Positions 3,676 to 56,355 of a stretch of DNA of 64,000 nucleotides are shown in pieces. Source of the DNA: Escherichia coli (GTDB taxonomy: Bacteria; Pseudomonadota; Gammaproteobacteria; Enterobacterales; Enterobacteriaceae). Made by a program: the position numbers and the translations under genes. The notes below the pieces were generated by a model. It ran no database searches, had not been told where the DNA came from, and saw only the letters and a program-made list of their open reading frames with translations. The stretch is taken from assembly GCF_011045215.1 (NCBI RefSeq), contig NZ_CP049201.1, one strand, 5' to 3'. Every line of letters starts with the position of its first letter. Within the stretch, counting starts at the first letter, position 1.

Positions 3676-3999
3676 ATGCAATTTTCTACAACCCCAACTC
3701 TGGAAGGCCAGACCATCGTTGAATATTGCGGTGTGGTGACCGGCGAAGCGATTTTAGGTGCCAATGTTTTCCGTGATTTCTTTGCCGGTATCCGCGATAT
3801 CGTTGGCGGACGTTCCGGTGCGTATGAAAAAGAACTGCGTAAAGCACGGGAGATCGCCTTTGAGGAATTAGGCTCCCAGGCGCGGGCGCTGGGGGCCGAT
3901 GCCGTCGTCGGTATTGATATCGACTACGAAACGGTCGGGCAAAACGGCAGTATGCTGATGGTTAGCGTCAGCGGTACGGCGGTGAAAACGCGTCGATGA
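3676..3999 (+). CDS. ybjQ: UPF0145 family protein YbjQ
   Basis: 107-aa ORF; stop overlaps amiD start (ATGA). Confidence 0.8.
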
Positions 4000-4826
4000 G
4001 AAGAGTCTTCTGGCTGGTCGCTGCCGCTCTGTTATTGGCAGGGTGTGCAGGCGAAAAAGGCATTGTCGAGAAAGAGGGATATCAGCTTGATACCCGACGC
4101 CAGGCGCAGGCGGCGTATCCGCGCATTAAAGTGCTGGTGATCCACTACACCGCAGATGATTTTGATAGCTCGCTGGCGACACTGACCGATAAGCAGGTCA
4201 GCTCGCATTATCTGGTCCCTGCGGTACCACCGCGATACAACGGTAAACCGCGCATCTGGCAACTGGTGCCGGAACAAGAACTGGCCTGGCATGCGGGGAT
4301 TAGCGCCTGGCGCGGGGCAACGCGCCTTAACGACACCTCTATTGGCATTGAGCTGGAAAACCGTGGCTGGCAAAAATCGGCCGGAGTGAAATATTTTGCC
4401 CCGTTTGAACCGGCACAGATTCAGGCGCTTATTCCACTGGCGAAAGATATTATTGCCCGTTATCACATCAAGCCGGAAAACGTAGTGGCACATGCGGATA
4501 TCGCACCGCAGCGCAAAGACGATCCGGGGCCATTATTTCCCTGGCAGCAACTGGCGCAGCAGGGGATTGGTGCCTGGCCGGATGCGCAGCGGGTTAACTT
4601 TTACCTTGCCGGGCGCGCGCCGCACACACCGGTAGATACCGCGTCATTGCTGGAGCTTTTGGCGCGCTACGGTTATGACGTTAAACCTGATATGACACCG
4701 CGCGAGCAGCGGCGCGTGATTATGGCATTCCAGATGCATTTCCGCCCGACGTTATATAACGGCGAAGCGGATGCAGAAACTCAGGCGATTGCCGAAGCAT
4801 TGCTGGAGAAATACGGGCAGGATTAG
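3996..4826 (+). CDS. amiD: N-acetylmuramoyl-L-alanine amidase AmiD (lipoprotein)
   Basis: 276-aa ORF with lipoprotein signal (LLLAGCAG) and amidase_2-like core. Confidence 0.85.
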
Positions 4827-22316: not shown

Positions 22317-22346
22317 ATGCAGGCATAAAAATTGGGGGAGGTGCCT

Positions 22347-24623
22347 ATGCTCAATCAAGAACTGGAACTCAGTTTAAATATGGCTTTCGCCAGAGCGCGC
22401 GAGCACCGTCATGAGTTTATGACCGTCGAGCACTTGTTACTGGCGCTGCTCAGTAACCCATCTGCCCGGGAGGCGCTGGAAGCGTGTTCTGTGGATTTGG
22501 TTGCGCTCCGTCAGGAACTGGAAGCCTTTATTGAACAAACCACACCCGTTCTGCCTGCCAGTGAAGAGGAGCGCGACACACAGCCGACGCTGAGTTTTCA
22601 GCGTGTACTGCAACGTGCGGTCTTCCATGTCCAGTCCTCCGGTCGCAATGAGGTTACCGGTGCAAACGTTCTGGTCGCTATCTTTAGCGAACAGGAGTCG
22701 CAGGCGGCATATCTGTTGCGTAAACATGAAGTCAGCCGTCTCGATGTGGTGAACTTTATCTCTCATGGCACGCGTAAAGACGAGCCGGCACAGTCTTCTG
22801 ATCCTGGCAGCCAGCCAAACAGCGAAGAACAAGCTGGTGGGGAGGAACGTATGGAGAATTTCACGACGAACCTGAATCAGCTTGCGCGCGTGGGCGGAAT
22901 CGACCCACTGATTGGTCGTGAGAAGGAGCTGGAGCGTGCTATTCAGGTTCTCTGCCGTCGCCGTAAAAACAACCCGCTGCTGGTGGGGGAATCTGGTGTC
23001 GGTAAAACCGCGATTGCAGAAGGTCTTGCCTGGCGAATTGTTCAGGGCGATGTGCCGGAAGTGATGGCTGACTGTACGATTTACTCTCTCGATATCGGTT
23101 CTCTGTTAGCGGGCACAAAATATCGCGGCGACTTTGAAAAACGTTTTAAAGCGTTGCTCAAGCAGCTGGAGCAGGACACTAACAGCATCCTGTTTATTGA
23201 TGAGATCCACACCATTATCGGTGCGGGTGCAGCGTCTGGTGGTCAGGTCGATGCGGCTAACCTAATCAAACCGTTGCTCTCCAGCGGTAAAATTCGCGTA
23301 ATTGGTTCGACAACCTATCAGGAGTTCAGCAACATTTTCGAGAAAGACCGTGCTCTGGCGCGTCGCTTCCAGAAAATTGATATTACTGAACCGTCGATCG
23401 AAGAAACTGTTCAAATCATCAATGGCCTGAAACCGAAGTATGAAGCGCACCACGACGTGCGTTATACCGCAAAAGCGGTGCGTGCGGCGGTAGAGCTGGC
23501 GGTGAAATACATTAACGATCGTCATCTGCCGGATAAAGCGATTGATGTTATCGACGAAGCGGGCGCTCGCGCACGCCTGATGCCGGTAAGCAAACGCAAG
23601 AAAACCGTAAATGTGGCGGATATTGAGTCCGTGGTGGCCCGTATTGCACGCATTCCAGAGAAGAGTGTTTCTCAGAGTGACCGCGATACCCTGAAAAACC
23701 TCGGCGATCGCCTGAAAATGCTGGTCTTCGGTCAGGATAAAGCTATTGAGGCGCTGACTGAAGCCATTAAGATGGCGCGTGCAGGTTTAGGTCACGAACA
23801 TAAACCGGTTGGTTCGTTCCTGTTTGCCGGCCCTACCGGGGTCGGGAAAACAGAGGTGACGGTACAGCTTTCGAAAGCTTTGGGCATTGAGCTTCTGCGC
23901 TTTGATATGTCCGAGTATATGGAACGCCATACCGTCAGCCGTCTGATTGGTGCGCCTCCGGGATACGTTGGTTTTGATCAGGGCGGTTTGCTGACTGATG
24001 CGGTCATCAAGCATCCACATGCGGTGCTGCTGCTGGACGAAATCGAGAAAGCGCACCCGGACGTGTTCAATATTCTGTTGCAGGTGATGGACAACGGTAC
24101 GCTGACCGATAACAACGGACGCAAAGCGGACTTCCGTAACGTGGTGCTGGTGATGACCACCAACGCCGGGGTACGTGAAACTGAGCGTAAATCCATTGGT
24201 CTTATCCACCAGGATAACAGCACCGATGCGATGGAAGAGATCAAGAAGATCTTTACACCGGAATTCCGTAACCGTCTCGACAACATTATCTGGTTCGATC
24301 ATCTGTCAACTGACGTGATCCATCAGGTGGTGGATAAATTCATCGTCGAGTTGCAGGTTCAGCTGGATCAGAAAGGTGTTTCTCTGGAAGTGAGCCAGGA
24401 AGCGCGTAACTGGCTGGCCGAGAAAGGTTACGACCGGGCAATGGGCGCACGTCCGATGGCGCGTGTCATCCAGGACAACCTGAAAAAACCGCTTGCCAAC
24501 GAACTGCTGTTTGGTTCGCTGGTGGACGGCGGTCAGGTCACCGTCGCGCTGGATAAAGAGAAAAATGAGCTGACTTACGGATTCCAGAGTGCACAAAAGC
24601 ACAAGGAGGAAGCAGCGCATTAA
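22347..24623 (+). CDS. clpA: ATP-dependent Clp protease ATP-binding subunit ClpA
   Basis: Two AAA+ modules (Walker A GESGVGKT and GPTGVGKT); 758 aa from [11 protein letters not shown]. Confidence 0.92.
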
Positions 24624-24647
24624 TCTGATTGTTAAGTAGGTTGGTGA

Positions 24648-24681
24648 AGTCCGTAATCTCGAAAGAGGTTACGGACTTTTT
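24648..24681 (+). terminator. Rho-independent terminator of clpA
   Basis: Hairpin agtccgtaa / ttacggact followed by TTTTT. Confidence 0.75.
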
Positions 24682-24836: not shown

Positions 24837-24984
24837 GTTCACTGCCGTACAGGCAGCTTAGAAAAATTGTCGGCGCATTTTCCCATTAGTTGCAAAGTTC
24901 ACTGCCGTACAGGCAGCTTAGAAATTCACAGGTAACATACTCCACCCGCCCACCATGTTCACTGCCGTACAGGTAGATAAAATG
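24837..24984 (+). CRISPR. Orphan type I-F-like CRISPR mini-array (3 repeats, 2 spacers)
   Basis: 28-bp repeat GTTCACTGCCGTACAGGCAGCTTAGAAA at 24837-24864 and 24897-24924; degenerate third copy at 24957-24984; two 32-bp spacers; AT-rich leader-like sequence upstream; no cas genes in window. Confidence 0.85.
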
Positions 24985-25041
24985 CGAAAAAAAAGCTCGT
25001 ACTTTCGTTCGAGCTCTTCTTTAAATATGGCGGTGAGGGGG
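24982..25041. repeat. att-like direct repeat copy 1 (tRNA-Ser 3' end plus terminator)
   Basis: 25028-25046 is the reverse complement of the last 19 nt of tRNA-Ser(GGA), preceded by hairpin plus A-run (a minus-strand terminator); the 60-bp unit recurs at 25161-25220. Confidence 0.7.
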
Positions 25042-25160
25042 GGATTGACTCGCTTCGCTCGCCCTGCGGGCAGCCCACTCACTGCGTTCGTGGTCTGTCC
25101 AACTGGCTGCGCCAGTTGTCGAACCCCGGTCGGGGCTTCTCACCCCCCCTGGAGTGCATT

Positions 25161-25220
25161 ATGCGAAAAAAAAGCTCGCACTTTCGTACGAGCTCTTCTT
25201 TAAATATGGCGGTGAGGGGG
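25161..25220. repeat. att-like direct repeat copy 2 (island left junction)
   Basis: Near-identical to 24982-25041 (2 mismatches); the tRNA-like match is shorter (about 14 nt); lies directly upstream of the integrase gene. Confidence 0.7.
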
Positions 25221-25380
25221 ACCGCCTGAAATAAATCTGACTTAATCCAGGGGTGTTATATAATTTCATTATAAACAATGTATTACACTTTTTGTTGTCC
25301 GATATTATCTAATGTATTCTTAGTGAAGCGAGAGACTAATGGCATACTGGATGGCATACCAGAGTGACGGGAATTAGCGT

Positions 25381-26770: not shown

Positions 26771-28588
26771 TCACTCCTGCTGAGACTGAATTATTCCTAG
26801 TGCGTCATAAATCAGTCTTCTGCGTAGTTTATTGTTTTTATCTGCACCATATAACATAAATATATTTTCAACTTTTTCTTCAGGTGTTCTGAGATAATGG
26901 ATAAGAAAGGTTATCATTCCAACACAATGGAATAAAGTGAATCCATCAAACAGGCTTATCAGGTTTCCTTTTTTTTCCCGTGTTGTAAGTATTTTTTCGC
27001 GGGTAAGAATATTTGCTAGTTCATGGGGGGTTGATATATTTCTGCTGTCTATAATGTTATTTATTTTACCAAGGGCTATATCAACTTCCTGTAATAGGTT
27101 ATTTATCATAGCTGAGTGAATGTTATTGGTTTCATGTTCCTGACAGTTTATGAACTTATAAATCATTGAGTTATACAGAAATATTACTCTTCCTAATAAA
27201 TATGTGTTTGTGTCATTTTGAAGACAGGACTCTGGGTATTCGTGATCCAGTGAAATAAGGTTAATGGACTCGCCCTGATAAGTCATAAAATAATTGATGT
27301 CATTTAATAATGCTCGGATATTTACATGATTTTTACTGAATTTTATTTTAAATGCTATCTTTAGTATAGCAAACGCGGCAATGATAAATCCAAAAGGTAA
27401 TTTCTCATAGTTCAGTTTATTGATGGTGCGATGAACACTTTCAGTCTTTCCTGAAGTAAGTTGTATCAAACAGTTAACAAATTCTGTATAGCCATTTAAG
27501 ACATAATGGCATGAAGAATCTTTTAAAGTGTTTTCTATGTTTTGTAATGTGACGCCGTTGTTCAATGTATAAATGTAACCGCCAAAGACAATGTTTTCAA
27601 TCTCAACGACACAATTTATTGTTTTTTGTTCAGGATAAAGATAAATATCAGAAATACTATAGTCTCGTATTGCGTCAATGGCCTCCCACGATAATGCACT
27701 GTCAATTTTCAGTGTATAAAATGGTGAGTTCTCATTAGGAAAGTAATATATGTGTTTGTTCAGTATATTCATTACATCTATTGGGTTGGTTAAATATAAT
27801 AACTGGCATTCATATTCTGAAACTTCTCTTTCGCTTATCAGCATTTTATATAAAGTTGCCAGGGCGCTTGTTAATGAAGTTCGTCTTTCGAAAGCCAGTA
27901 ATATGGTGAGATAATAACATGCAACTTGAATTTTATCTAAGTCAGAAATTATTTTTTCCTTGTCTTCATTACTTAAATAAAGCAGATGTTTACAGGTTTC
28001 TTTGCATGTGTTGATAGTTGCGGTAAGTTTTGTTTTTCCTGGTGTACTGTTTTTGCGAATATTACGAATGAATTCATATACGCCATCAAAGATATCTTTG
28101 AAATGCGCATTCGCTGGTGTGTATCCGGATAAACATAACTTAATGTAATTTCGCAGATATGTCCTTGCAGCATGATATATATCATCCTCATTATCCGGTA
28201 TCTGAGTGAGAAAAGAATGAATATGATAGTAAAATGCCATCTCATTATCCGGGCGATATGTGTTCCTGATGTCGAGTGCGAGAATCATTGGTACAATGTC
28301 ATTAAAATATTTTTGTTTTATTATTTGATGTGTTTTGTCTGTAAAAACAGAATAGTGCATTAGCTTAACATAGAGATCTTCATATCTCCTAAATATAACT
28401 TTTCGTTGTTCTGTACTCAATACTTGTTCTTTATCAATAATGTTTATTAATTCATCAAACATGTCGCCCAGTGAATGTTGATGTGAGGAAAAATTTTTAA
28501 TATTTCGGATGTCACGGGTATTCTGGTTTTTAGCCAGAACACCAAAACATGAAAAGACATCATACATTATAGTGATAAAATTATACAT
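26771..28588 (-). CDS. Hypothetical 605-aa protein, AT-rich, no recognised domain
   Basis: Long uninterrupted ORF with strongly AT-biased codons; no P-loop or nuclease motif recognised by eye. Confidence 0.55.
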   Translation of the reverse strand: MYNFITIMYDVFSCFGVLAKNQNTRDIRNIKNFSSHQHSLGDMFDELINIIDKEQVLSTEQRKVIFRRYEDLYVKLMHYSVFTDKTHQIIKQKYFNDIVPMILALDIRNTYRPDNEMAFYYHIHSFLTQIPDNEDDIYHAARTYLRNYIKLCLSGYTPANAHFKDIFDGVYEFIRNIRKNSTPGKTKLTATINTCKETCKHLLYLSNEDKEKIISDLDKIQVACYYLTILLAFERRTSLTSALATLYKMLISEREVSEYECQLLYLTNPIDVMNILNKHIYYFPNENSPFYTLKIDSALSWEAIDAIRDYSISDIYLYPEQKTINCVVEIENIVFGGYIYTLNNGVTLQNIENTLKDSSCHYVLNGYTEFVNCLIQLTSGKTESVHRTINKLNYEKLPFGFIIAAFAILKIAFKIKFSKNHVNIRALLNDINYFMTYQGESINLISLDHEYPESCLQNDTNTYLLGRVIFLYNSMIYKFINCQEHETNNIHSAMINNLLQEVDIALGKINNIIDSRNISTPHELANILTREKILTTREKKGNLISLFDGFTLFHCVGMITFLIHYLRTPEEKVENIFMLYGADKNNKLRRRLIYDALGIIQSQQE

Positions 28589-28755
28589 AACATTCTCCTT
28601 TTATTGCACTATATAAAATTTTAACATTATATCATTTTGCTTTTCTGTTAACTGGTTTTCATTTTTGAATCAATATTTTCTGAACAGGGTAATAGTACAC
28701 GTATTAACAGATTATGTCAGAAGGCCCCGGTGATGCCTTCTGACGATAGATTAAT

Positions 28756-29477
28756 GTGATATTCTATTGGTATCTGGAGACCATATGGCAACAGTTACAG
28801 TACATTCTCCCCGCTGTAATTCCTATAAAGTGTACCATTATGATCACAGCACCTCAGATCATGAGCGTTTCCAGTGCTAATCCTGCAAATGTGTGTATTT
28901 CAACTGAATTACATCTACGAAACCCGAAAACCAGGCATCAAAGAGCAAATTGTTGAAATGGTTCATAACGGAGTCGGGTTCGCGATAGCTCCAGAACGCT
29001 GAAGGTGGATATCAACACCGTCATTCTCACTTTATAAAACGCTCACCACGCAAAGTAACCACATCTCCAGACGTCAGTGCCGATGTGGCGCTTATCTGCG
29101 AACTTGATGAACAATGGAGTTTTGTCGAAAACAAAGCTCGTCAGCAGTGGCACTGGTATGCGTATAACACCAAATCTGGAGGTGTGCTGGCTTACACTTT
29201 TGGTCCTCGCACTGATGAAACATGTCGTGAGTTGCCGGAACTCCTGAAGCCATTCTCCACAGGCATGATAACCAGAGACAACCGGAGCAGTTATACCAGA
29301 GAAATGCCACAGGATAAGCATCTTGTCGGCAAGATATTTACCCGGCGCATTGAGCGCAACAATCTGACACTTCGTACTCACATCAAACGACCAGCCCGGA
29401 AAACGATTTGCTTTTCACGCTCCCTGGAAATTCACGAAAAGCCATTGGTTCATTTATCGAAAACACTGTACTACTGA
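28756..29477 (+). pseudogene. Degenerate IS1-family element remnant (InsA/InsB-like, frameshifted)
   Basis: 29085-29477 translation ALICELDEQW...YTFGPRT...QRIERNNLTLRTH matches the InsB pattern; InsA-like pieces upstream broken by stops. Confidence 0.6.
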
Positions 29478-38456: not shown

Positions 38457-40196
38457 TTGACTGGAAAATTATGTTGCAGGAACGAGAGGGCTGAGGAACA
38501 AAGCGTATTCCGGCGCTGTCCGTCCTTGCTGTCACTGACACTGATGTCTGTTTTATTATCGCCTTTATCTCTTCAGGCCGCGGATGTCCGGCGTAGCGGA
38601 GATAATGCATTTATCATTCAGCAGCAGCGTCAGGAAGCCCTTGAGCAACAACTGACGCCTTCAGCCCCTGATGTTCGCCTTTCTGCACCTGGCTCTTTTG
38701 CCCGTAAGATTAATTTTCCTGTTGAAACGCCCTGTTTTCAGATTAAACAGACGGAACTGGAGGGGGCTGATGCGTTACCACACTGGCTGCCTTTACAAAA
38801 AATCGCCAACGGGGCGGTCGGGCATTGCCTGGGGGCGAAAGGAATTAATCTGCTGATGAGTACATTGCAGAACCGTCTGGTCGATCATGGTTATGTCACC
38901 ACCCGTGTTCTGGCACCTTCGCAGGATTTAAAAAGCGGTATCCTCCGGCTGGTTGTTATTCCCGGTGTTGTGCGACATGTGCGTCTGACACCGGACAGTG
39001 ATGACTATATTCAGTTGTATTCCTCATTCCCGGCACACGAAGGTTCTCTGCTGGATTTACGGGACATTGAGCAGGGGCTGGAGAATATGCAACGACTGCC
39101 GGGTGTGCAGGCTGATATGGAAATTGTACCCGGTGAGCAGCCAGGGGAAAGTGACATTCTTATTACCCGCAAACAGGACAAATACTGGCGACTGGGGTTT
39201 TCGCTTGATGATTCAGGTACCCGCAGCACAGGGCGTTATCTCGGTGGTATAACATTTTCTCTGGATAATCCTTTTTCCCTGAGTGACCTGCTGTATGTTT
39301 CTGCCACCCGTAATTTTCCACATTACGGGGGTAAGGGCAGTAAAAACTACACGGCCCATTACTCTGTGCCTTTCGGCTACTGGCAGTTTTCCGTCACCGC
39401 CAGTGATTACGATTACCATCAGACGGTAGCTGGTGCGGTTGAGGATTACCAGTACAGTGGCGAGAGTCAGAATCTGGGTATGCAGCTGAGCCGGGTACTG
39501 CACCGTAACGGGACGCAGAAAACGGTGCTGACCTACGATGTTCAGGCCCGCAGGTCGCGTAACTACATTAATGATACGGAAATCCAGGTGCAGCGCCGGC
39601 AGACAGCGGCCTGGCGACTTGGGCTGCAGCACCGTCATTATATTTCTCAGGCCACACTGGATGCTGGTGTCAGCTGGCAACGGGGAACCCGCTGGTTTGG
39701 TGCACAGCCGGCGCCGGAAGAAACGTTCGGTGAGGCAACGGCGCTCAGTAAGATCCTGCAGTTGAATGCATCCTTTAATCTGCCCTTTACCCTTGCAGGG
39801 CAGCCCTTCAGTTATTCCTTCCGGTATCAGCGCCAGCTGAGCAATACCCCGCTGACCCCACAGGAACAGTTTGCCATCGGTAACCGCTGGACGGTTCGTG
39901 GTTTTGACGGGGAGCGAACGCTGAATGCCAGTAACGGCTGGTATATCCGCAACGACCTGGCCTGGCGTACGCCACTGCCGGAGCAGGAGTTATATCTGGG
40001 AATGGATTACGGCGAGGTGGGGGGAGCCGGCAGTGAATACCTGGTGGGACGTCATCTGGCTGGTGGTGTTGTGGGGCTGAGGGGGCAACTGTTCAGTACG
40101 GATTATGACGTTTTCATCGGTCGTCCGTTTTCAAAGCCGGCGGGTTTTATGACGAGTGATGTGACAGCCGGTTTTAATCTGTTCCGGGATTTCTGA
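38457..40196 (+). CDS. cdiB: Two-partner secretion outer-membrane transporter CdiB (TpsB family); start uncertain (TTG at 38457)
   Basis: Signal peptide ending [13 protein letters not shown]-like N-region, C-terminal beta-barrel ending in aromatic residue; directly upstream of cdiC-cdiA. Confidence 0.85.
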
Positions 40197-40205
40197 GAAA
40201 GTTTC

Positions 40206-40733
40206 ATGCGTAACGGGAAATATGACGTTCTGAGTCCCCTGTATTCCGGTGAGCCGGTCAATGAGGCGGAAGTCCTGGGGGCGGCCGTCTGGTTGTGGAT
40301 GCACTCCCCCCTGCATCGTGATGCGCCACTGCATACCCTGCCGGACCTGCTGCTGCCGGTGATTAAGCACCGACAGTATGTGGTGGCAACAGAGCAGGGG
40401 CGACCGGTTTTCTTCATGAGCCAGGCCTGGCTCAGCCCGGAGGCAGAGGCGCGTTATCTTACGCAGCCGGCAATTCTCATGCCTCAGTCGGACTGGAACA
40501 GCGGCGACCGGATGTGGGTCTGTGACTGGATTGCCCCTTTTGGACATACCCCGGATATGAGTCGTCTTGTCCGGCAGGATATTTTTCCCCGTCTGTGCTG
40601 GCGTTCGCTGTACCACCGTGGGCAGCAGACCGGGTTGCGGGTGATGAATTTCCGGGGTGCACAGGTCAGTCGTGAAGAGGCGCGCCAGTGGCGTGTGCAG
40701 CACCCGCTTGCTGTGGATGTGCCGGAGAGATAA
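40206..40733 (+). CDS. cdiC: HlyC/RTX-family toxin-activating lysine acyltransferase (CdiC-like)
   Basis: Motifs WLWMHSPLHRD and GDRMWVCDWIAPFG closely parallel HlyC (WLWASSPLHRN, GDRKWFIDWIAPFG); 175 aa. Confidence 0.8.
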   Translation: MRNGKYDVLSPLYSGEPVNEAEVLGAAVWLWMHSPLHRDAPLHTLPDLLLPVIKHRQYVVATEQGRPVFFMSQAWLSPEAEARYLTQPAILMPQSDWNSGDRMWVCDWIAPFGHTPDMSRLVRQDIFPRLCWRSLYHRGQQTGLRVMNFRGAQVSREEARQWRVQHPLAVDVPER

Positions 40734-40748
40734 GTCAGGTTTATCAGA

Positions 40749-43700
40749 ATGAACAAAAATTGTTACCGCATTATTTTTAACAAAGCCCGGGGAATGCTGA
40801 TGGTGGTGGCAGATATTGCCCGTTCCGGTCGCGCCGGTGCATCACCCTCCTCCCGTACAGGATATCCACGCAGGCAACGTATCTGCCGTGTCACATCGCT
40901 TGCATTCTCCCTGTGGCTGGCCTCGGGGATGGTGCATTCTGTCAGTGCTGCAGGCATTGTCGCAGACCATGGCGCACCGGGGCATCAGCAGCCCACGATT
41001 ACGCAGACAGCCAGCGGCATTCCTCAGGTCAATATCCAGACACCTTCTGCAGGTGGGGTATCGCACAATACTTACAGTCAGTTTGATGTCAGTCATCAGG
41101 GTGTCATTCTGAATAACTCGCATAAAAATGTGCAGACCCAACTGGGCGGCATGGTTGCCGGTAACCCGTGGCTGGCGAAGGGAGAGGCCCGAATCATTCT
41201 TAATGAAGTGAACAGTCGCAATCCCAGCCAGTTGAACGGTTTTGTTGAGGTTGCCGGGAAAAAGGCGCAGGTGGTGATTGCGAACCCGGCCGGCATCAGT
41301 TGCGACGGGTGCGGTTTTATTAATGCGAACCGGGCCACGCTGACCACGGGGCAGCCTCAGATGAAAAACGGCAGTCTGACCGGATTCAGTGTTGAACGTG
41401 GTGAGATTCAGATTACGGGCAAAGGGATGGATGCCTCGCGCACGGATTATACCGATATCATTGCCCGGTCTGTGAAGATTAATGCGGGTATCTGGGCGCA
41501 GGACCTGAAAGTGACCACCGGACGTAACAATGTGGATATTGCACACGGGCAGACTGAGAAAAAAGCCGCTGATGCCTCTTCGCAGCCACAGGTGGCGCTG
41601 GATGTGTCCAGCCTTGGTGGAATGTATGCCGGAAAAATTCGCCTTGTCGGTACGGAAACGGGGGTGGGTGTTCGTAACGCCGGTCATATTGGTGCGCAGG
41701 CAGGGGCGGTTACCCTGACGGCTGACGGACGAATTGAAAACAGTGGCAGTATCAGTGCGAAAACGGATGTGCATCTGGTGACAACCCGGGAGCTGCATAA
41801 CAGTGGTTCTGTTTATGCGGGGCAGGATACGCAGATACAGAGTGATGGTGTATTCACCCATACAGGCTCTGTGGCATCACGTCGCAACACCCGGATTCAG
41901 ACAGCGCGTCTGACCGGCGGTGAGCGGAGTCTGCTGGCCGCCGGGGTGAAAGATGACGGACGTCTGGCGGCAGCGGGCAACCTGACTGTCAGTACCACCG
42001 GCGAACTGGCGGCACACGGACAGGTTCTGTCCGGTGGGGACATGCAACTGAAGGGGCAGGGGCTGGATTTAAGCAACAGCCGGATACAGGGACAACATAC
42101 TGAGCTGGATGCAGGCAGCGGAAATCTGTTCACGCAAAATGCGCAACTGAGTGCCGGTACGCTTTCCGCCCGGACTGCCGGGCAGTTCAGCAATAATGAC
42201 GGCACGATAAATGCCGACACACTGCAGATATCAGCACAGAGCCTGTCAAACCACAGGGGTAAACTGATTCAGACGGGAACAGGGGATTTTTCACTGAACC
42301 TGCCGGGAGGTGTGGATAACCGGGAAGGGCTGCTTGCGGCAAATGGCGCGGTGCGCCTGGATGCACTGAGCCTTGATAATCGCAGGGGGAAAGTGCAGGC
42401 GGCGCAGTCAGGTAGTCTGCAGGTGAGGACAACCGGCGCCGTGGATAACCAGCAGGGAAGTCTGATTGCCAGCCGTGACATCCTGATTAATACACAGGCA
42501 CTGAATAACGACAACGGACTGATTTCAGCTGCTGCCGGAACGGGCAGGATAAAAACACAGCAGGCTGTCAGCAATACTGAGGGACGAATGGAGTCCGCCG
42601 GCAGGCTGGATATTTCGGCAGGGAGTCTGAATAACCACCAGGGTACGGTGGTGTCTGACGGGCTGTCCGTGACGCTGGATGGTGCGCTGGATAATACGTC
42701 CGGCAGACTGCTTTCACAGAAAACGCTGTCTGTGTCAGGCAGCGAACTGGTCTCTGATGATGGTCTGATTCAGTCCGGCAGTGACATGACGCTGGATGTA
42801 CAGGACGGGGTTCTCAGTAACCGGAACACGAAAACACGGGGTGGTATCAGCAGCGCCGGTACCCTGACAGTACGGGCCGGTATGCTGAATAACCAGCAGG
42901 GATTTATGGCGGGTCAGAAGGATATGACCCTGAACGCCGGAACGCTCGATAACCGTCAGGGCGTGCTGGGGAGTCAGGCGTCATTACAGATATCGTCAGG
43001 TACGCTGATGAACCAGAAAGGCGCACTGAAGGCCGGGACGGATATGTTGCTGAGTGGTGGCGATGTCAGTAATCAGGAAGGGACGCTTGCCGCCGGCGGG
43101 GACCTGAATGCGCACCTGAATGTGCTGGAAAATCAGCAGGGGACGGTGGTCAGCAACGGTAACAGCAGGCTGGATGTCACCCGCTCTGATAATCAGGGCG
43201 GCAGACTGGTGGCACAGCAGTCACTGACCCTTTCCTCGACGGATATCAGCAATGATGCAGGTGGTCTGATACAGAGCGGTGCCACACTGAATCTCCGTGC
43301 TGACACACTGAGCAACCGTAACAGTGGTGACCGGGGCGGGGTTATCAGTCAGGGCCCGATGACGCTGAATGCCGGCACACTGGACAGCACTGCCGGTGTG
43401 CTTTTGTCGGGAGATGCGCTGTCCCTGACTGCAGGCGTGGTTAACAATACATCCGGTCAGGTGGTGGCGAATGGTCAGATTGTGGCGACCGGTCTGCCCG
43501 GCCGGAACAGTCTGGCGCTGAACAATCAGTCCGGTCTTATTCAGGGGAAAGGCATCAGCATTAATAGCGCAGGCCGGACGCTGGATAACAGAGGGGGTAC
43601 GCTGAACAGCCTGCAGGAACTGACTGTCAGTACCGGAGCAATGGATAACCGGGGCGGGACCGTGGGGGCGAAAACGACAGCTGACCTGAGCACCACCTCG

Positions 43701-46700
43701 CTGGATAACCGTGAGGGTGGCCGGCTGGTCAGTGAAGGTGAACTCCGTCTGCATACGGGAGGCCTGCAGAACAGCCACGGACAGATACAGTCTGTGGGCG
43801 ACATTCTGTTCGACAGTGTACGGGGCGTTGTGGACAACGTCTCTGGTCTGATTCGCAGTGGTTCTGCCATTACGCTGAACGCCCTGCAGTTTATCAATCG
43901 CCACACGCAGAATACCGGCCAGGGGCTGGAAGCGCAGACAATACACATCACGACGCAGGACCTTGATAACCAGGAGGGCAGTATTCTGGCAGACAGGGCG
44001 CTTACGGTTATGGCAGACAGGACGCTCAGTAATAATGATGGCGTGCTCTCTTCCGGCGCGACATTGTCTGTCAGTGGCCGTCAGCTGGCGTTTTCGAACC
44101 GTGACGGCGTGGTTAAGGCCGGGCAGTCAGTCTCTGTGGATGTCGGTCAGCTTGGTGGTGACGGGAAACTGCTTTCGCCGGGCGATATAACGCTGAAAAG
44201 TAACACAGCGTTCAGTAACAGTGGTCAGACCATTGCAAACGGAAACCTTACGCTTTCCGTTAATGGCGATGTCTCTAATACCGGCAGCCTGCTGGCAGGC
44301 AGCCGGCTTGACCTGAACAGCATCCGCCTTGAAAACACAGAGAAAGGTGAAATCAGTGCCGGGCAGACCTGGCTTAACGTGACGGACACACTGCTGAACC
44401 GTGGGCTGATTGACGGGAAATATACGCATCTTCAGGCGAACACCCTGACGAATTCCGGTACCGGGCGAATCTACGGCGATGCTGTTGGTGTCAGCGCTGC
44501 CACATTTAATAATCTGGATGAAAATGGCGTGGCGGCGACGCTGGCCGGACGTGAGCGTGTGGACCTGGGGGTACAGACCCTGAATAACCGGACGCACAGC
44601 CTGATTTACAGTGCAGGTGATATGCATATCGGTGGCATGCTGGATGCGAATGGCGCCGCCACGGGGAAAGCCGGTGTACTGAATAATCACAGTGCCACGA
44701 TTGAAGCCGCCGGTTCCCTGACACTGAGTGCCGGGCAAATCAATAACGTCAATGACCATTTCACCACGGAGCGCGTGGTGGTCTCCACGGAAAAGGTGAC
44801 TGAGTATCAGCATCGCGGGTCAGATGTCCGCTGGAATGCAAAAGATGAGGGGGTGTTCATTGATAACAACTCCTCTGATGGACTGCTGAACCTGAACACG
44901 CCGGATGATACCGGACATAACAACGACCGGTTCACAAAATATGAATACACCCGTACCGTGGAGGAAACCCGGGTAAAAGACTCCGACCCGGGGAAAATAC
45001 TGTCCGGTGCCGGCATGACGGTTGTGGCAGACAAACTGCTTAATGACAAGAGCCAGGTGGTTGCAGGTGGTCTGCTGGATATGCAGGCCGGTGATGTGGA
45101 AAACGTCAGTGTCAGCGGAGAGCGCCATGTTACTGATAAAGGGACATCCACATATTATTACCGGATAAAAAGAAAAAATAAAAATGACAGGCAGGGGGAA
45201 AGAATTTCCCCTTACGAGCCGCCCCCCGTCATTCAGACCATCACGCTGAAGCCGGGAGAGCTCACCAGCCACGGACAGGTTCAGGGCAGCCAGGTCACGC
45301 TTTCTCCCCTGAAGCCACAGGGAACGGATGTACAGACAGGACTGACCGGAAATGTGGATGCGACAGTAGCCGTTACTGACCGGATACCGCTTCGCCCGGT
45401 GGTGTCAGCCGGTGAACCGGTCATTCTGTTGCCGGGGCAGCAGTTTGAAGTCAGCGCACCTCAGGGCAGTATCCATGTTGCCGGGCCGGATACCCGTCTG
45501 CCGGACAGCAGCCTGTTTAAAACAAATCCGGCAGTGAATGTGCCATATCTGGTTGAAACGGACCCGCGTTTTACGAACCAGAAGACGTGGCTGGGCAGTG
45601 ATTACATGCAGAAGGCGTTTTCTCAGAACGGGGATAACATGCTCAAACGCCTGGGGGATGGTTTTTACGAACAGCGTCTGATTCGTGAGCAGGTTGTCGC
45701 TCTGACCGGGCAACGGTACCTGGACGGATACAGTAATGATGAAGAGCAGTTTAAGGCGTTAATGGATGCGGGTATTGCATTTGGTAAGCAATACAACCTG
45801 ACACCAGGTGTGGCGCTGACTGCTGAGCAGATGGCGTTACTGACCGGTGATATTGTCTGGCTGGTTAACACCACGGTGACACTGCCGGACGGCAGCACGC
45901 AGACGGTTCAGGTACCTCAGGTGTATGCCCGTGTAAAACCCGGTGATGTGAACAGTGCCGGTGCGCTGATTGCCGGCAGGGACATGGTGATGAAGCTGGA
46001 TGGTGACCTGTTTAACAGCGGTAAACTGGCCGGGAAGCAGGCCGTGCAGCTCAGTGCAGAAAACATTCACAACCAGGCCGGCACCATTCAGGGAGCAAAT
46101 GTCAGCCTGACGGCCCGGACGGATATTAACAGTACCGGCGGGCTGCTGCAGGCCACGGACAGCCTGCTGGCGATGGCCGGACGGGATATCAGTCTGACCA
46201 CCACCACCCGTACGGCACAGCGCGACGCCGGGCAGAACCATTTTGAACGTACCAGTATCGACAGTGTGGCCGGCGTGTATGTGCAGAACGACCAGGGAAG
46301 ACTGGTGCTGCAGGCCGGACGGGATATGAATCTGACGGCGGCAACGGTGGTGAATCAGGGTAAGGACAGCCTGACACAACTCAGTGCCGGCAGGGATATG
46401 ACGCTTTCCACGGTGACCACATCCGCGCAGGACAATATTACCTGGGATAAAAATAATCGTCTGTCGCAGGGCGTCACACAGAATACGGGCAGCACACTTG
46501 CCGGTAACGGTGATGTCACGCTGACCGCCGGACGGGATATGACGTCACAGGCGGCATCGCTGTCAGCTCAGAAAGGCCTGGCCCTGATGGCGGGTCATGA
46601 CGTGACGCTGACCGGTGCACAGAATACCCGCTCGCTGGATGAATACCATAAAGTGACCGGCAACAGCGGGATGTTATCGAAAACCACCACTACCACGCAT

Positions 46701-49700
46701 GATGTCACTGACCGCCGGACCATGACGGGCAGTGAACTGAACGGGGATACGGTCAGTATCGGTGCCGGACATAATCTGAACGTCACGGGCAGCAGTGTGG
46801 CCGGGGATAACCGTGTCTCCCTGGCTGCCGGAAATAACCTGAGTATCGGAACGCTGACAGAAAGCAACCGTGAAACACACCTGAAACAGGAGAAAAAATC
46901 CGGACTGATGAGCTCCGGAGGTGTGGGATTCAGCGTGGGCAGCCAGAGTCTGAAGGTCACGGACACCGCAACAGACACCACGCAGAAAGGCAGCACGGTG
47001 GGGAGTGTTCACGGTGATGTTTCCCTTCAGGCAGGTAACCGGTTGACCGTCAACGGCTCTGACCTGATTGCCGGCAGGGACATGGCACTCAGTGGTAAGG
47101 AGGTCAGCATTACCGCCGCCACTGACCGGCATGTGCAGACACATACGGTGGAGCAGAAAACCTCCGGTCTGACGCTTGCCCTGTCCGGCACAGCGGGCAG
47201 CGCCCTGAACACGACGGTGGAGACCGTACAGGCGGCGAAATCTGCCGGAAACAGCCGGCTTGAAGCCCTGCAGGGGGTGAAGGCCGCGCTCTCGGGGGCT
47301 CAGGCCGTGCAGGCCGGACGACTGGCAGAAGCACAGGGCAACCAGAAAGAGAATAACAATACCGTGGGTATCAGCCTCTCTTACGGCAGCCAGTCTTCGA
47401 AATCAGAACAGCAGTCAGAGCAGACGGTGGCGAAGGGCAGTACACTGACCGCAGGTAATAACCTCAGTATTCAGGCCACCGGCTCCGGCGTGAAGGGCGT
47501 GGATGGTGACCTGACGATACAGGGCGGTCAGATAAAGGCCGGGAACAACGTTCTGCTGCAGGCAAACCGTGACGTGAATCTGGTATCAGCAGAAAACACG
47601 TCAAAGCTGGAAGGAAAGAACACATCCAGTGGTGGCAGCGTGGGTGTCGGTATCGGTGTGGGGCCCGGAGGGCCTGGTTTCAGTCTGTCAGCCAGCGCAA
47701 ACCAGGGTAAGGGCAGTGAAAAAGGCAACGGTACCACCCATACAGAAACCACGGTGGATGCGGGAAACCGGCTGACCATTATCAGCGGGCGGGACACCAC
47801 GCTTACCGGCGCGCAGGCTGGCGGTGAAACGGTGAAAGTGGATGCCGGTCGTCATCTGACACTGACCAGTGAGCAGGACAGTGACCGTTATGACAGTAAG
47901 CAGCAGAATGCCAGCGCCGGAGGCAGCTTCACTTTCGGGTCCATGAGCGGTTCGGCGAGTGTGAACCTCAGCCGGGATAAAATGCACAGTAACTACGACA
48001 GTGTACAGGAGCAGACGGGGATTTTTGCCGGCAGGGGCGGGTTTGATGTCACCACCGGACAGCATACGCAACTGAACGGTGCGGTGATTGCGTCCACGGC
48101 AACGGCAGATAAAAACAGGCTGGATACCGGCACACTGGGCTTCAGTGACACTGAAAACCGGGCTGACTTTAAAACGGAACATCAGAGTGCAGGGCTCAGT
48201 ACCGGTGGCAGTGTTGCCGGAAATTTCCTGGGGAACATGGCAAACAATCTGCTGGTCGGTGCAAATCATGAAGGCCATGCGGACAGTACCACGCAGTCGG
48301 CTGTGTCTGCCGGGAATATCACTATCCGGGATACACAGAGCCAGAAACAGGATGTGGCAGACCTGAACCGTGACGTTGCGCATGCAAACCAGACGCTGTC
48401 CCCCATCTTTGACAGGGAAAAAGAGCAGCAGCGGTTGCAGCAGGCGCAACTCATTGGTGAGATTGGTAACCAGGTGGCAGATATTGCCAGAACGGAAGGA
48501 CAGATAGCCGGTGAGAAAGCGAAGCGGGACCCGGCAGCACTGAATCAGGCCCGCGCAGAGCTTGAGGCAGCAGGAAAACCGTACACGGAACAGGATGTGG
48601 CACAGCGGGCCTACAATAACGGTATGGCAGCCTCCGGTTTTGGAACGGGAGGCAAATACCAGCAGGCGATACAGGCCGCAACGGCAGCGGTACAGGGACT
48701 GGCCGGCGGTAATCTGAGTGCAGCCCTGGCAGGTGGTGCAGCGCCGTATATTGCTGAAATTATCAAACAGACCACCCCGGACGGTGCGGGGCGTGTGGCA
48801 GCTCATGCAGTAGTGAATGCCGCCCTGTCTCTGGCACAGGGTAAGAATGCCCTTGCCGGTGCTGCAGGTGCAGCCACCGGCGAGGTGGTGGGAATGATAG
48901 CCACACAGATATACGATAAATCGGTGAGTGAACTGAGTGAGACAGAGAAACAGACGGTCTCCACGCTGGCAACGGTTGCTGCCGGCCTGGCCGGTGGTCT
49001 GGTGGGAGACTCGGGGGCTTCAGCGGTAGCCGGCGCACAGTCAGGTAAGACGACTGTTGAGAATAATTATCTTAGCGTGTCTGAAAAGACAGAGCTTGAG
49101 ATAGCAAAACAGAAGCTTAAAAACAGTAAAGATCCGGCAGAGCGTGAAAAGGCACAGCAGAAATATGATGCATTGCTTGAAAAAGATATCAGCAGTGATA
49201 AGGCAGTAATCGCTGCGTGCAGTAACGGACAGGCAGCCAGCGCAGCTTGTGCCGGTGAAAGACTGAAGGTTATTGCAGCTAAAGGAGGTTATGAAACCGG
49301 ACACTACAATAACCAAGTCAGCGATATGTATCCGGATGCTTACGGGCAGATAGTAAACCTGCTGAATATCACCAGTGTTGATGCACAAAATCAACAACAG
49401 GTGAAGGATGCGATGGTGAACTATGCCATGGTGCAGTTTGGGGTCGATAGGGCGACGGCACAGGCATACGTTGAAACTTATGATGGAATGAAAGTTGTAG
49501 CTGCTTCGATGGCACCAGTAATAGGTGCTGCGGCGGCCAGTAAGATAGAAGTTCTGGCTGGTAAACAACGCTTGTCTAATAGTTTCGAGGTTAGCTCACT
49601 TCCAGATGCAAATGGGAAAAATCACATCACGGCTGTAAAAGGTGATGCTAAAATACCTGTCGATAAGATTGAACTATATATGCGTGGTAAAGCTTCTGGT

Positions 49701-50069
49701 GACCTTGATTCTTTGCAAGCAGAATATAATTCTTTAAAAGATGCAAGGATTAGCAGCCAAAAAGAATTTGCAAAAGATCCAAACAATGCTAAAAGGATGG
49801 AAGTATTAGAAAAACAAATCCATAATATTGAGCGTTCTCAAGATATGGCTCGTGTATTAGAACAAGCAGGTATAGTGAATACTGCCAGTAATAACAGCAT
49901 GATAATGGATAAGTTATTGGACTCAGCTCAGGGGGCTACGTCTGCAAATAGAAAAACATCTGTTGTTGTATCAGGGCCTAACGGTAACGTAAGGATTTAT
50001 GCTACATGGACAATATTACCTGATGGCACGAAAAGACTTTCAACTGTTAATACGGGGACATTCAAATGA
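40749..50069 (+). CDS. cdiA: Contact-dependent inhibition exoprotein CdiA (3106 aa) with VENN-delimited C-terminal toxin
   Basis: Extended signal peptide MNKNCYRIIFNKARGMLMVVADIA, TPS domain (ANPAGISCDGCGF), long FHA-type repeat tracts, VENN at 49056-49067, AT-rich C-terminal 333 aa. Confidence 0.9.
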   Translation: MNKNCYRIIFNKARGMLMVVADIARSGRAGASPSSRTGYPRRQRICRVTSLAFSLWLASGMVHSVSAAGIVADHGAPGHQQPTITQTASGIPQVNIQTPSAGGVSHNTYSQFDVSHQGVILNNSHKNVQTQLGGMVAGNPWLAKGEARIILNEVNSRNPSQLNGFVEVAGKKAQVVIANPAGISCDGCGFINANRATLTTGQPQMKNGSLTGFSVERGEIQITGKGMDASRTDYTDIIARSVKINAGIWAQDLKVTTGRNNVDIAHGQTEKKAADASSQPQVALDVSSLGGMYAGKIRLVGTETGVGVRNAGHIGAQAGAVTLTADGRIENSGSISAKTDVHLVTTRELHNSGSVYAGQDTQIQSDGVFTHTGSVASRRNTRIQTARLTGGERSLLAAGVKDDGRLAAAGNLTVSTTGELAAHGQVLSGGDMQLKGQGLDLSNSRIQGQHTELDAGSGNLFTQNAQLSAGTLSARTAGQFSNNDGTINADTLQISAQSLSNHRGKLIQTGTGDFSLNLPGGVDNREGLLAANGAVRLDALSLDNRRGKVQAAQSGSLQVRTTGAVDNQQGSLIASRDILINTQALNNDNGLISAAAGTGRIKTQQAVSNTEGRMESAGRLDISAGSLNNHQGTVVSDGLSVTLDGALDNTSGRLLSQKTLSVSGSELVSDDGLIQSGSDMTLDVQDGVLSNRNTKTRGGISSAGTLTVRAGMLNNQQGFMAGQKDMTLNAGTLDNRQGVLGSQASLQISSGTLMNQKGALKAGTDMLLSGGDVSNQEGTLAAGGDLNAHLNVLENQQGTVVSNGNSRLDVTRSDNQGGRLVAQQSLTLSSTDISNDAGGLIQSGATLNLRADTLSNRNSGDRGGVISQGPMTLNAGTLDSTAGVLLSGDALSLTAGVVNNTSGQVVANGQIVATGLPGRNSLALNNQSGLIQGKGISINSAGRTLDNRGGTLNSLQELTVSTGAMDNRGGTVGAKTTADLSTTSLDNREGGRLVSEGELRLHTGGLQNSHGQIQSVGDILFDSVRGVVDNVSGLIRSGSAITLNALQFINRHTQNTGQGLEAQTIHITTQDLDNQEGSILADRALTVMADRTLSNNDGVLSSGATLSVSGRQLAFSNRDGVVKAGQSVSVDVGQLGGDGKLLSPGDITLKSNTAFSNSGQTIANGNLTLSVNGDVSNTGSLLAGSRLDLNSIRLENTEKGEISAGQTWLNVTDTLLNRGLIDGKYTHLQANTLTNSGTGRIYGDAVGVSAATFNNLDENGVAATLAGRERVDLGVQTLNNRTHSLIYSAGDMHIGGMLDANGAATGKAGVLNNHSATIEAAGSLTLSAGQINNVNDHFTTERVVVSTEKVTEYQHRGSDVRWNAKDEGVFIDNNSSDGLLNLNTPDDTGHNNDRFTKYEYTRTVEETRVKDSDPGKILSGAGMTVVADKLLNDKSQVVAGGLLDMQAGDVENVSVSGERHVTDKGTSTYYYRIKRKNKNDRQGERISPYEPPPVIQTITLKPGELTSHGQVQGSQVTLSPLKPQGTDVQTGLTGNVDATVAVTDRIPLRPVVSAGEPVILLPGQQFEVSAPQGSIHVAGPDTRLPDSSLFKTNPAVNVPYLVETDPRFTNQKTWLGSDYMQKAFSQNGDNMLKRLGDGFYEQRLIREQVVALTGQRYLDGYSNDEEQFKALMDAGIAFGKQYNLTPGVALTAEQMALLTGDIVWLVNTTVTLPDGSTQTVQVPQVYARVKPGDVNSAGALIAGRDMVMKLDGDLFNSGKLAGKQAVQLSAENIHNQAGTIQGANVSLTARTDINSTGGLLQATDSLLAMAGRDISLTTTTRTAQRDAGQNHFERTSIDSVAGVYVQNDQGRLVLQAGRDMNLTAATVVNQGKDSLTQLSAGRDMTLSTVTTSAQDNITWDKNNRLSQGVTQNTGSTLAGNGDVTLTAGRDMTSQAASLSAQKGLALMAGHDVTLTGAQNTRSLDEYHKVTGNSGMLSKTTTTTHDVTDRRTMTGSELNGDTVSIGAGHNLNVTGSSVAGDNRVSLAAGNNLSIGTLTESNRETHLKQEKKSGLMSSGGVGFSVGSQSLKVTDTATDTTQKGSTVGSVHGDVSLQAGNRLTVNGSDLIAGRDMALSGKEVSITAATDRHVQTHTVEQKTSGLTLALSGTAGSALNTTVETVQAAKSAGNSRLEALQGVKAALSGAQAVQAGRLAEAQGNQKENNNTVGISLSYGSQSSKSEQQSEQTVAKGSTLTAGNNLSIQATGSGVKGVDGDLTIQGGQIKAGNNVLLQANRDVNLVSAENTSKLEGKNTSSGGSVGVGIGVGPGGPGFSLSASANQGKGSEKGNGTTHTETTVDAGNRLTIISGRDTTLTGAQAGGETVKVDAGRHLTLTSEQDSDRYDSKQQNASAGGSFTFGSMSGSASVNLSRDKMHSNYDSVQEQTGIFAGRGGFDVTTGQHTQLNGAVIASTATADKNRLDTGTLGFSDTENRADFKTEHQSAGLSTGGSVAGNFLGNMANNLLVGANHEGHADSTTQSAVSAGNITIRDTQSQKQDVADLNRDVAHANQTLSPIFDREKEQQRLQQAQLIGEIGNQVADIARTEGQIAGEKAKRDPAALNQARAELEAAGKPYTEQDVAQRAYNNGMAASGFGTGGKYQQAIQAATAAVQGLAGGNLSAALAGGAAPYIAEIIKQTTPDGAGRVAAHAVVNAALSLAQGKNALAGAAGAATGEVVGMIATQIYDKSVSELSETEKQTVSTLATVAAGLAGGLVGDSGASAVAGAQSGKTTVENNYLSVSEKTELEIAKQKLKNSKDPAEREKAQQKYDALLEKDISSDKAVIAACSNGQAASAACAGERLKVIAAKGGYETGHYNNQVSDMYPDAYGQIVNLLNITSVDAQNQQQVKDAMVNYAMVQFGVDRATAQAYVETYDGMKVVAASMAPVIGAAAASKIEVLAGKQRLSNSFEVSSLPDANGKNHITAVKGDAKIPVDKIELYMRGKASGDLDSLQAEYNSLKDARISSQKEFAKDPNNAKRMEVLEKQIHNIERSQDMARVLEQAGIVNTASNNSMIMDKLLDSAQGATSANRKTSVVVSGPNGNVRIYATWTILPDGTKRLSTVNTGTFK

Positions 50070-54852: not shown

Positions 54853-56355
54853 TCACCCGGAGAAGGTAAATCCCTCAAGGGGCAGCAACTCTGCCAGTCG
54901 CTCCTCTGGCCATTCCGGCAGACGCGCCAGGACGTCTGTCAGCCAGGCATGTGGCTCCAGACCATTACGTTTTGCCGTTTCCAGAAGGCTCATTATCTGT
55001 GCCGCGCGGTTTCCGGCCATCAGTGAACCGGCGAACAACCAGGCCTTTCGTCCCATAACGACCGGGCGGATAGCACGCTCGCAGATATTGTTGTCCAGGG
55101 GCACGGCTCCGTCACCCAGGAAGCAGCTCAGTTCATCGCGCCGGTTCAGGATATAATTAATCGCTTTGTTTAGTGGTCCGTCGGGCGGACAGCACGGCTC
55201 CTGCTCTTCAAGCCAGGCAAACAGGTCATTCACTATCGGCCGGGAATACCGTTGTCGCCATTGCCGTATTTTTTCCACAGGACGTTCACGGATGAACTTC
55301 TCAATGCGATAAAGACCCGCGATTTTTCTCAGCGCCATGGCTGCACGGGGCTCCCTGCTGGCCTTATACAGACTGGCGAAGCCGCGTCTTGCGTGGCTCC
55401 AGCAACAGGCAGATGTAATACCGGGGTCATTATCCGCCAGAGATTTGTACACGCTGTATCCGTCACTCACCAGCGTGCCACCACGCCAGCCCTGCAGCCA
55501 GGCCTCAGGATATCTGAGGGCCCGTCCGGTCTGCGAGTCAAAACAGACGACCGGCGGGCCGCTTCTTTCTCCGCTGACGTAAGCCCACAGCCAGCCGGAG
55601 CAGGATTTACCGCCTTTCCGGGTATCAAGGAGCCTCAGGGACGTTTCATCTGCATGAATAACATCCCGTGTCAGAAGCTCGTGGCGTAACAATTTTGCCA
55701 GCGGGGCCAGTGCAGCGCCAGCAACACCGACCATATCCGCCATTGTACTGACGGGGAGCTCCACACCCATTCGGGAGAAAATGTGCTGCTGGCGATACAG
55801 GGGCAGATGGTCGGTATATTTGCTGATGACAACCTGTGCGATGACCGATGGCTCAACAGCACTTTTCGGAAGGATATGTGCCGGCATTTTTCCGCTGAAC
55901 ACTTTCTCACAGCAGGGACAGCTGTACTGCGGGCGGATATAGCGGTGGACCACAACCTGTGCGGGGATATATTCCAGCTTCTCGCTGACTTCATCGCGAA
56001 TGAAGTGCAGGGGGGCATCACAGTCAGGACAACGTTCCTCAGCTGGCGGGATAACCTTTTCAGCACGGGGAAGATGTGAAGGCAAGGGCTTACGAACAGG
56101 ACGTGTTGTTTTTTCTTCGTCCCCGGTCTGAGGAAGCAGTTTGTCCAGACGCGCCGAGATTTCTGCGATATCCGCGTCAACATCCTCTTCGAACAGGGAA
56201 CGCTGCATCCCGGCCAGCGATTCGCATTTTTTACCAAAACGCTGCTGGCGTGCGAGCTTCATCTGCTCTTCCAGGATGCGGATACGGTTCTGAAGTTCTG
56301 CAATATTCCGGTCTTTTTCCAGCACCATATTTGCAAGGTTCTGACTCTCAGCCAT
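54853..56355 (-). CDS. IS66-family transposase TnpC
   Basis: 500-aa ORF; N-terminal leucine-zipper-like coiled coil, Cys-rich zinc-finger region (CPDCDAPL...CPCCE), DDE-type core. Confidence 0.8.
   Translation of the reverse strand: MAESQNLANMVLEKDRNIAELQNRIRILEEQMKLARQQRFGKKCESLAGMQRSLFEEDVDADIAEISARLDKLLPQTGDEEKTTRPVRKPLPSHLPRAEKVIPPAEERCPDCDAPLHFIRDEVSEKLEYIPAQVVVHRYIRPQYSCPCCEKVFSGKMPAHILPKSAVEPSVIAQVVISKYTDHLPLYRQQHIFSRMGVELPVSTMADMVGVAGAALAPLAKLLRHELLTRDVIHADETSLRLLDTRKGGKSCSGWLWAYVSGERSGPPVVCFDSQTGRALRYPEAWLQGWRGGTLVSDGYSVYKSLADNDPGITSACCWSHARRGFASLYKASREPRAAMALRKIAGLYRIEKFIRERPVEKIRQWRQRYSRPIVNDLFAWLEEQEPCCPPDGPLNKAINYILNRRDELSCFLGDGAVPLDNNICERAIRPVVMGRKAWLFAGSLMAGNRAAQIMSLLETAKRNGLEPHAWLTDVLARLPEWPEERLAELLPLEGFTFSG

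Follow-up and report, generated by a model that had tools for sequence, protein, structure and literature searches.

The two 60-bp direct repeats in the 64,000-nucleotide stretch of Escherichia coli DNA analysed here (the window) are best explained as two unrelated and already known things that came to be superimposed, a native RtT module belonging to the tRNA gene serW and a separate genomic island in that gene, and we consider this explanation about 90% probable. Under it, serW and its putative terminator are followed in some genomes by a module of ~179 bp in which RtT is joined to a repeat copy of that terminator, RtT being a structured RNA-type sequence of ~135 nt whose 5′ G-run pairs with the tRNA-derived T-stem/acceptor strand. 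The 3′ 19 nt and the terminator are common to tRNA and RtT units, which for this reason appear as 60-bp repeats 179 bp apart. The number of RtT copies would shift by unequal recombination or duplication between the repeats, and such shifts could account for the lack of RtT at serW of strain K-12, the two tRNAs and one RtT of strain GF31 and the three RtT units at K-12 serX. An island of the SRL-PAI/OI-43 type would, through its P4-type integrase, have entered serW by recombination in the final 14 bp of the gene, carrying the intact gene to the far end of the island past position 64000 and leaving behind a 14-bp scar, the terminator and RtT (Table 1).

Table 1 Features of the window, with their positions (1 is the first nucleotide of the window), strand and the evidence or parts by which they are defined
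Feature	Position	Strand	Evidence or parts
clpA, chromosomal backbone left of the locus	22332–24623	+	ORF list; gene order macB-cspD-clpS-clpA as in annotated E. coli records
Orphan type I-F CRISPR remnant	24837–24984	+	Rfam CRISPR-DR4 (50.1, 50.1 and 22.1 bits)
Left 60-bp repeat	24982–25041	−	Putative RtT-unit terminator (stem 24995–25002/25007–25014, U-run 24994–24987) and first 14 nt of the RtT 3′ tail
RtT-type element of the Ser(GGA) kind	25028–25163	−	Rfam RF00391; RefSeq annotation of orthologue; fold; covariation
Right 60-bp repeat, proximal part	25161–25206	−	Putative serW intrinsic terminator (stem 25174–25181/25186–25193, U-run 25173–25166)
Island attachment scar, 14-bp direct repeat TGGCGGTGAGGGGG (last 14 bp of serW)	25207–25220	−	serW identity ends there; published repeat; junction in strain 700462
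Genomic island, continuing past the window end	25221–64000		ORFs, GC content, protein family matches
P4-type tyrosine integrase of the island, 400 aa	25381–26583	+	Pfam Arm-DNA-bind_3, Phage_int_M and Phage_integrase

The repeats lie at the serW locus

The repeats sit at the E. coli serW locus, as the gene order makes plain. K-12 has clpA, a CRISPR remnant, one 60-bp unit, intact serW and infA, and the window, matched against this clpA-serW-infA order, has clpA, a CRISPR remnant, the two 60-bp repeats, a P4-type integrase gene and a genomic island. A terminator-like hairpin of clpA lies at 24646–24679. The CRISPR remnant comprises two repeats (24837–24864 and 24897–24924) and a degenerate third (24957–24984), with spacers at 24865–24896 and 24925–24956; it has two spacers compared with one in K-12, the second being the K-12 spacer and the first (aattgtcggcgcattttcccattagttgcaaa) the extra one. 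Orphan CRISPR arrays at the clpA/serW locus have been reported to carry anti-cas spacers.

An earlier sequence-only reading of this DNA had pointed to two 60-bp direct repeats with two mismatches, and a repeat search of the window recovered them at 24982–25041 and 25161–25220 (58/60 positions identical, 97%), 179 bp apart from start to start and separated by 119 nt that are, as that reading also held, GC-rich (GC 0.655). The hairpin and T-run that it had seen in each repeat were borne out by folding of the minus strand, with z-scores of about −5: the left repeat folded at −16.6 kcal/mol (z −5.1) and the right one at −21.3 kcal/mol (z −5.5), in both cases with none of 200 shuffles as good. Both hairpins have the same architecture (A-tract, 8–9-bp stem, GAAA loop and U8). 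Judging from this shape they would be intrinsic terminators, and transcription would be expected to end at them. A simple consensus terminator scanner called neither of the two, which direct folding did show. Both mismatches between the repeats fall in the terminator stem, as an A·A mismatch in the left copy and a G·U pair in the right; in strains 700462 and GF31, the two repeat copies differ in A-run length alone.

Each repeat is closed by the 14-mer TGGCGGTGAGGGGG, the reverse complement of the tRNA-Ser(GGA) 3′ end, of which the window holds two exact matches against 0.02 expected. The last 14–19 nt of a tRNA-Ser previously ascribed to the repeats resolve into 19 nt identical to the K-12 serW 3′ end in the left copy (25028–25046) and only 14 nt in the right one (25207–25220), where identity stops at 25220/25221. 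Neither ARAGORN nor Rfam found a tRNA gene in the 64-kb window, in agreement with the statement that no intact tRNA is present. The right 60-bp copy matches the sequence directly 3′ of intact K-12 serW at every position (0/60 mismatches), and its proximal part is serW’s own putative terminator, now separated from serW by the island.

The segment between the repeats is an RtT element

The GC-rich 119-bp segment, together with the tRNA tail in the left repeat, is a Ser-type RtT element, known and conserved. In a local search the Rfam RtT model (RF00391) matched it over the full model length (positions 1–130) with an E value of 1e-7 and 46.3 bits, the gathering score being 45; the match lies barely above the threshold because the model was built on Tyr-type sequences, and the Ser-type orthologues in K-12 and GF31 score the same as the window copy. 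RefSeq labels the orthologue in other E. coli “RtT sRNA”. From 5′ to 3′, the element consists of a G-run, a hairpin (TGAGAAGCCCCGACCGGGGTTCGAC), internal hairpins and a 19-nt tail (25046–25028) that is identical, CCA included, to the 3′ end of tRNA-Ser(GGA). Its minimum free energy is −55.6 kcal/mol, and the minimum-energy fold of the window copy has the consensus stems described below.

RtT RNA (rttR, RF00391) is the element that recurs in the 178-bp repeats on the distal side of tyrT/tyrV, repeats that Bösl and Kersten reportedly described in E. coli in 1991. The window unit is like the tyrT/tyrV ones in that both form tandem units of ~180 bp directly downstream of a same-strand tRNA gene, carry the final ~19 nt of its tRNA, CCA included, at their own 3′ end, and have core motifs and the outer-stem/hairpin architecture in common. 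However, the host tRNA in the window is Ser(GGA), with tail and 5′ arm to match, and the tyrT units have no terminator of their own, whereas each Ser unit carries a predicted intrinsic one. The Rfam score also differs, at 46 bits in the window compared with 133–137 bits for the tyrT type at the K-12 tyrT locus (arranged tyrT-RtT-tyrV-RtT-RtT-RtT), and the window element, unlike those at tyrT/tyrV, is parted from its tRNA by the island.

By analogy with tyrT RtT, the Ser type would be transcribed and processed in the same way, as a stable RNA freed from the transcript of the tRNA operon, and if it were so expressed, the product would be a discrete RNA of ~130 nt with a 3′ end in ...CACCGCCA. 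In this strain, where both the island and the putative terminator that precedes RtT stand between the unit and the serW promoter, the unit may be silent; a window scan found no promoter-like site upstream of RtT on the minus strand. A 26-aa ATG ORF (25079–25159, minus strand) lies within the RtT body at a position that recalls the doubtful tpr ORF in tyrT RtT; this and other small ORFs inside the unit were set aside as mechanical ORFs without support.

RtT modules in E. coli genomes free of the island

The sequence-only reading had taken the 119-bp segment for the remnant of an earlier integration and had proposed a comparison with strains that lack the island. That comparison speaks against the remnant: the same RtT is found in the island-free serW locus of GF31, as well as at K-12 serX. 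In GF31 the locus reads infA, serW, serW, RtT, CRISPR remnant and clpA, the two serW genes and RtT pointing towards infA. The tandem duplication of serW has a period of 181 bp, the RtT unit one of 178 bp, and a 181-bp tandem duplication with its junction at ACAA would produce the arrangement seen. At 4172–4440 of the serW locus record, the first ~46 nt of RtT precede the second serW and are fused to it at ACAA/TTT. This fusion shows that the two kinds of unit, tRNA and RtT, recombine with each other and are interchangeable modules.

Downstream of K-12 serX, three tandem RtT units of ~181 bp follow one another, each composed of RtT body, tRNA-Ser tail and terminator. The element is the same Ser-type one as in the window (92.5% identical) and the 60-bp terminator-and-tail module recurs, in four copies with 3–4 mismatches; the serX array differs in lying on the ghrA side and not between clpA and infA, in having three copies and not one, and in having no island. 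K-12 serW has a single 60-bp unit without RtT, which brings the K-12 total to 1 + 4 copies. The sequence-only reading would have counted a common dispersed 60-bp unit against itself, and this applies in the sense that the unit is a recurrent module of the serW and serX loci.

These arrangements were counted in 5426 complete E. coli genomes at a query coverage of ≥80%. CRISPR remnant, 60-bp unit and RtT followed one another in 1029 genomes and the K-12-type locus without RtT was present in 4014. Roughly one complete genome in five, a sizeable minority, thus has an RtT module behind serW. The order RtT, 60-bp unit, 14-bp repeat and island end was present in 740 of the 5426 (serW and serX together), so that the exact configuration of the window is common.

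RtT across genera and conservation of its structure

For a cross-species scan we used one genome per species and, as query, a motif common to the Tyr and Ser types (TGAGAANCNNCGACNNNGGTTCGA). It gave at least 120 loci (906 kb) with at least 185 elements, from Enterobacterales and Pseudoalteromonas. Among the 185 elements listed, 101 contained an exact match to the final 14 nt of a tRNA on the same strand of the locus (59 Tyr-GTA and 42 Ser-GGA), and in all 101 of these listed matches the cognate tRNA lay upstream. The other listed elements were behind Ser-GGA, Tyr or Ser-GCU genes, apart from 20 for which no upstream same-strand tRNA was found. Syntenic positions recurred among the elements listed, namely purU/narI (Tyr), ghrA (serX) and clpA/infA (serW). 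Among the matches listed, the hosts of RtT-like elements were Tyr and Ser tRNAs alone, both of class II. The RtT-like elements outside Enterobacterales (Pseudoalteromonas loci L007, L094, L110, L115 and L120; also L016 and L100) were behind tRNA-Ser(GCU)-type tails (CCTTCCTTCTCCGCCA) and had matching 5′ arms.

From an alignment of 40 diverse RtT elements (A1), RNAalifold derived a consensus made of a 5′ hairpin and an outer stem, the latter formed between the 5′ G-run and the T-stem/acceptor strand that derives from the tRNA. In the outer stem and hairpin, 97.7% of cells were paired, compared with 27–68% in slid controls, and double changes were seen in 5 pairs and 73 cells, a cell count that none of 500 shuffles reached (21.8±7.9), figures to be read against the few independent lineages in the alignment (Tyr, Ser-GGA, Ser-GCU and a few variants) and against a hairpin of which part (helix 2) is fixed by the search pattern. 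The 5′ arm tracks the tRNA tail, with GGGGAAGG/CCTTCCCC for Tyr and GGGGGGG/CCCCCCC for Ser-GGA, and with GAGAAGG/CCTTCTC and GGGAGGG/CCCTCCC as further arm/tail variants. The Tyr and Ser cores have the motifs TGAGAA..CGAC..GGTTCGAC and GCCCGnAGGGCGA in common. Counted by eye from behind GGTTCGAC, an arbitrary boundary, Tyr-type RtT is 85 nt long, as is tRNA-Tyr.

The covariation between RtT arm and tRNA across genera, and the restriction of the sampled elements to Tyr/Ser loci, are mildly new, and everything else reported here is known or annotated; we found no description of either in the searchable literature, outside which most of the older RtT work lies. The covariation is a modest pointer to structural selection on RtT elements. 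One could go further and see in RtT a selected family of tRNA acceptor/T-arm mimics, found solely behind class II tRNA genes, with the 5′ arm kept complementary to whichever tail is carried, and not a set of inert leftovers, a proposal that we offer tentatively and think rather unlikely. If it were true, the window unit would be a functional RNA module, perhaps processed by RNase P and 3′ trimming enzymes, RtT could titrate, as a sponge or decoy, those factors that recognise the 3′ halves of tRNAs, and islands in serW would uncouple RtT from its promoter.

The same data bear on the idea that the RtT unit is a decayed serW duplicate, a functionless tRNA pseudogene in a tandem tRNA array. The interchangeable units of GF31, with nearly the same period (181 versus 178 bp), would fit such an origin, as would the 3′ 19 nt and terminator that RtT and serW have in common, and Ser-type RtT measured from behind GGTTCGACAA is 88 nt long, the exact length of serW (3885–3972 of locus record L002), although that boundary is arbitrary and the agreement perhaps a coincidence. 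Nevertheless, the Ser-type core is recognised by an RtT model built on Tyr sequences and not by the tRNA model (no hit at E ≤ 1), there are motifs common to the Tyr and Ser cores, and graded intermediates between tRNA-Ser and RtT are absent from the 120 loci, among the matches listed. Moreover, the 5′ arm changes together with the tail taken from the tRNA, a pattern that speaks for selection on structure. We therefore regard decay of a serW duplicate as very unlikely and retain the native RtT module as our explanation for the pair of repeats.

The island junction and the history of the site

Among the repeat and RtT sequence, only the 14 bp of the attachment scar are island-related. In EHEC O157:H7, islands OI-43 and OI-48 have at either end a perfect 14-bp direct repeat, TGGCGGTGAGGGGG, which is the last 14 bp of serW and serX and identical to the repeat of SRL-PAI from Shigella flexneri; OI-43 and OI-48 encode a P4-family integrase, and their precise excision has been demonstrated (PMC3064760). 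The window island has in common with OI-43, OI-48 and SRL-PAI the identical TGGCGGTGAGGGGG junction, the adjoining P4-family integrase and the tRNA-Ser(GGA) target, and differs in that its cargo is partly other (a haemagglutinin/two-partner-secretion module); neither ter nor ure genes were seen in the 39 kb of island within the window. The integrase gene adjoins the terminator-side junction. Its product scores 185.9 bits against the PRK09692-like domain of NCBIfam, well under the curated cut-off of 434, and in relatives it is annotated as a tyrosine-type recombinase.

In strain 700462 the near-end junction is the same as in the window (GGCGGTGAGGGGG followed directly by ACCGCCTGAAAT), and at the far end of its island of ~60 kb the same 14 bp lead into an intact serW beside infA. 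No TGGCGGTGAGGGGG copy within an intact tRNA-Ser occurs in the island part covered by the window; in 700462 one is present at this far end, which supports the view that here, too, the intact serW would lie beyond position 64000, at the far end of the island. The left island edge is at 25221, and precise excision is predicted to restore the order serW, terminator and RtT.

Serial integration at tRNA genes leaves tandem att arrays, for example of the SGI1 type, and the sequence-only reading had interpreted the two repeats in these terms: they would be successive att sites, the 119-bp segment the leftover of an earlier element, and the site probably used more than once. Such an array would indeed resemble the window in its repeated tRNA 3′ ends in direct orientation, tandem integration being able to leave a duplicated tRNA 3′ end with flanking sequence, and the description of the repeats as att-like is correct for the right copy, which holds a true att scar at 25207–25220. 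The pair as such is nevertheless the native tRNA/RtT module. What lies between the repeats is an RNA-type element, chromosomal and conserved, which, being present in island-free loci, does not qualify as mobile-element DNA, and the repeat reaches into the host terminator, a near-identical copy of which is not expected in an integrated element, and occurs without any island. In island-free loci the unit adjoins intact serW or serX, and conservation at syntenic loci of tRNA-Tyr and tRNA-Ser extends over many genera; among the matches listed, none of the 120 loci (906 kb) encodes a homologue of the window integrase. Its secondary structure is conserved and covarying, and the 119-bp core had no match, at blastn sensitivity, in 50,697 phage records. 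As for repeated use of the site, we saw no sign of it for the one family of island ends covered, the island end being joined to the RtT body in 0 of 5426 genomes. For a recent event, successive att sites are already largely refuted, and overall we hold this account to be highly improbable. By eye, RtT (GGTTCGA, ~70 nt, AATCC...) resembles an insertion into the T-loop, the crossover region of many tRNA-targeting integrases, and this look makes it conceivable that the RtT family may have a very ancient integrative origin.

We give next to no credence to the notion that the island integrase could use the RtT tail copy (25028–25046) as an alternative attB, be it a spare or a decoy. Although this tail holds the full 14-bp repeat, unoccupied and 179 bp from the occupied site, RtT departs from the tRNA directly after the 19th nucleotide, inside the T-loop, and a chimeric query of island far end, 14-bp repeat and RtT body had no match in the 5426 genomes, whereas genomes that join this island end to genuine serW are frequent, which for the one family of island ends covered confines integration to the real tRNA. 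The native module with its superimposed island, our preferred explanation, carries a lesson for annotation: duplicated tRNA 3′ ends beside serW, serX or tyrT in enterobacteria are not in themselves evidence of repeated integration, because native RtT modules carry them.

Island cargo

Within the island, a low-GC block (26800–28800, 31–34% G+C) directly follows the integrase and contains a 605-aa ORF (26771–28588, minus strand) without an NCBIfam match; in strain 700462, a DUF3987 protein occupies the corresponding position. An IS66 element lies at 54853–56355. The closest relative of the cargo was found in strain 52F4, whose best match covers 76% of 40000–64000. There the related cargo is in an island at a tRNA-Ile gene, so that 52F4 is uninformative on the serW end, and the cargo is a mosaic between islands with different integration sites. 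A two-partner-secretion module at 38457–50069 consists of a 579-aa ORF, with relatives annotated as ShlB/FhaC/HecB, and a 3106-aa filamentous haemagglutinin; the most similar copy of this module, at 97.7%, is the one in the tRNA-Ile island of 52F4.
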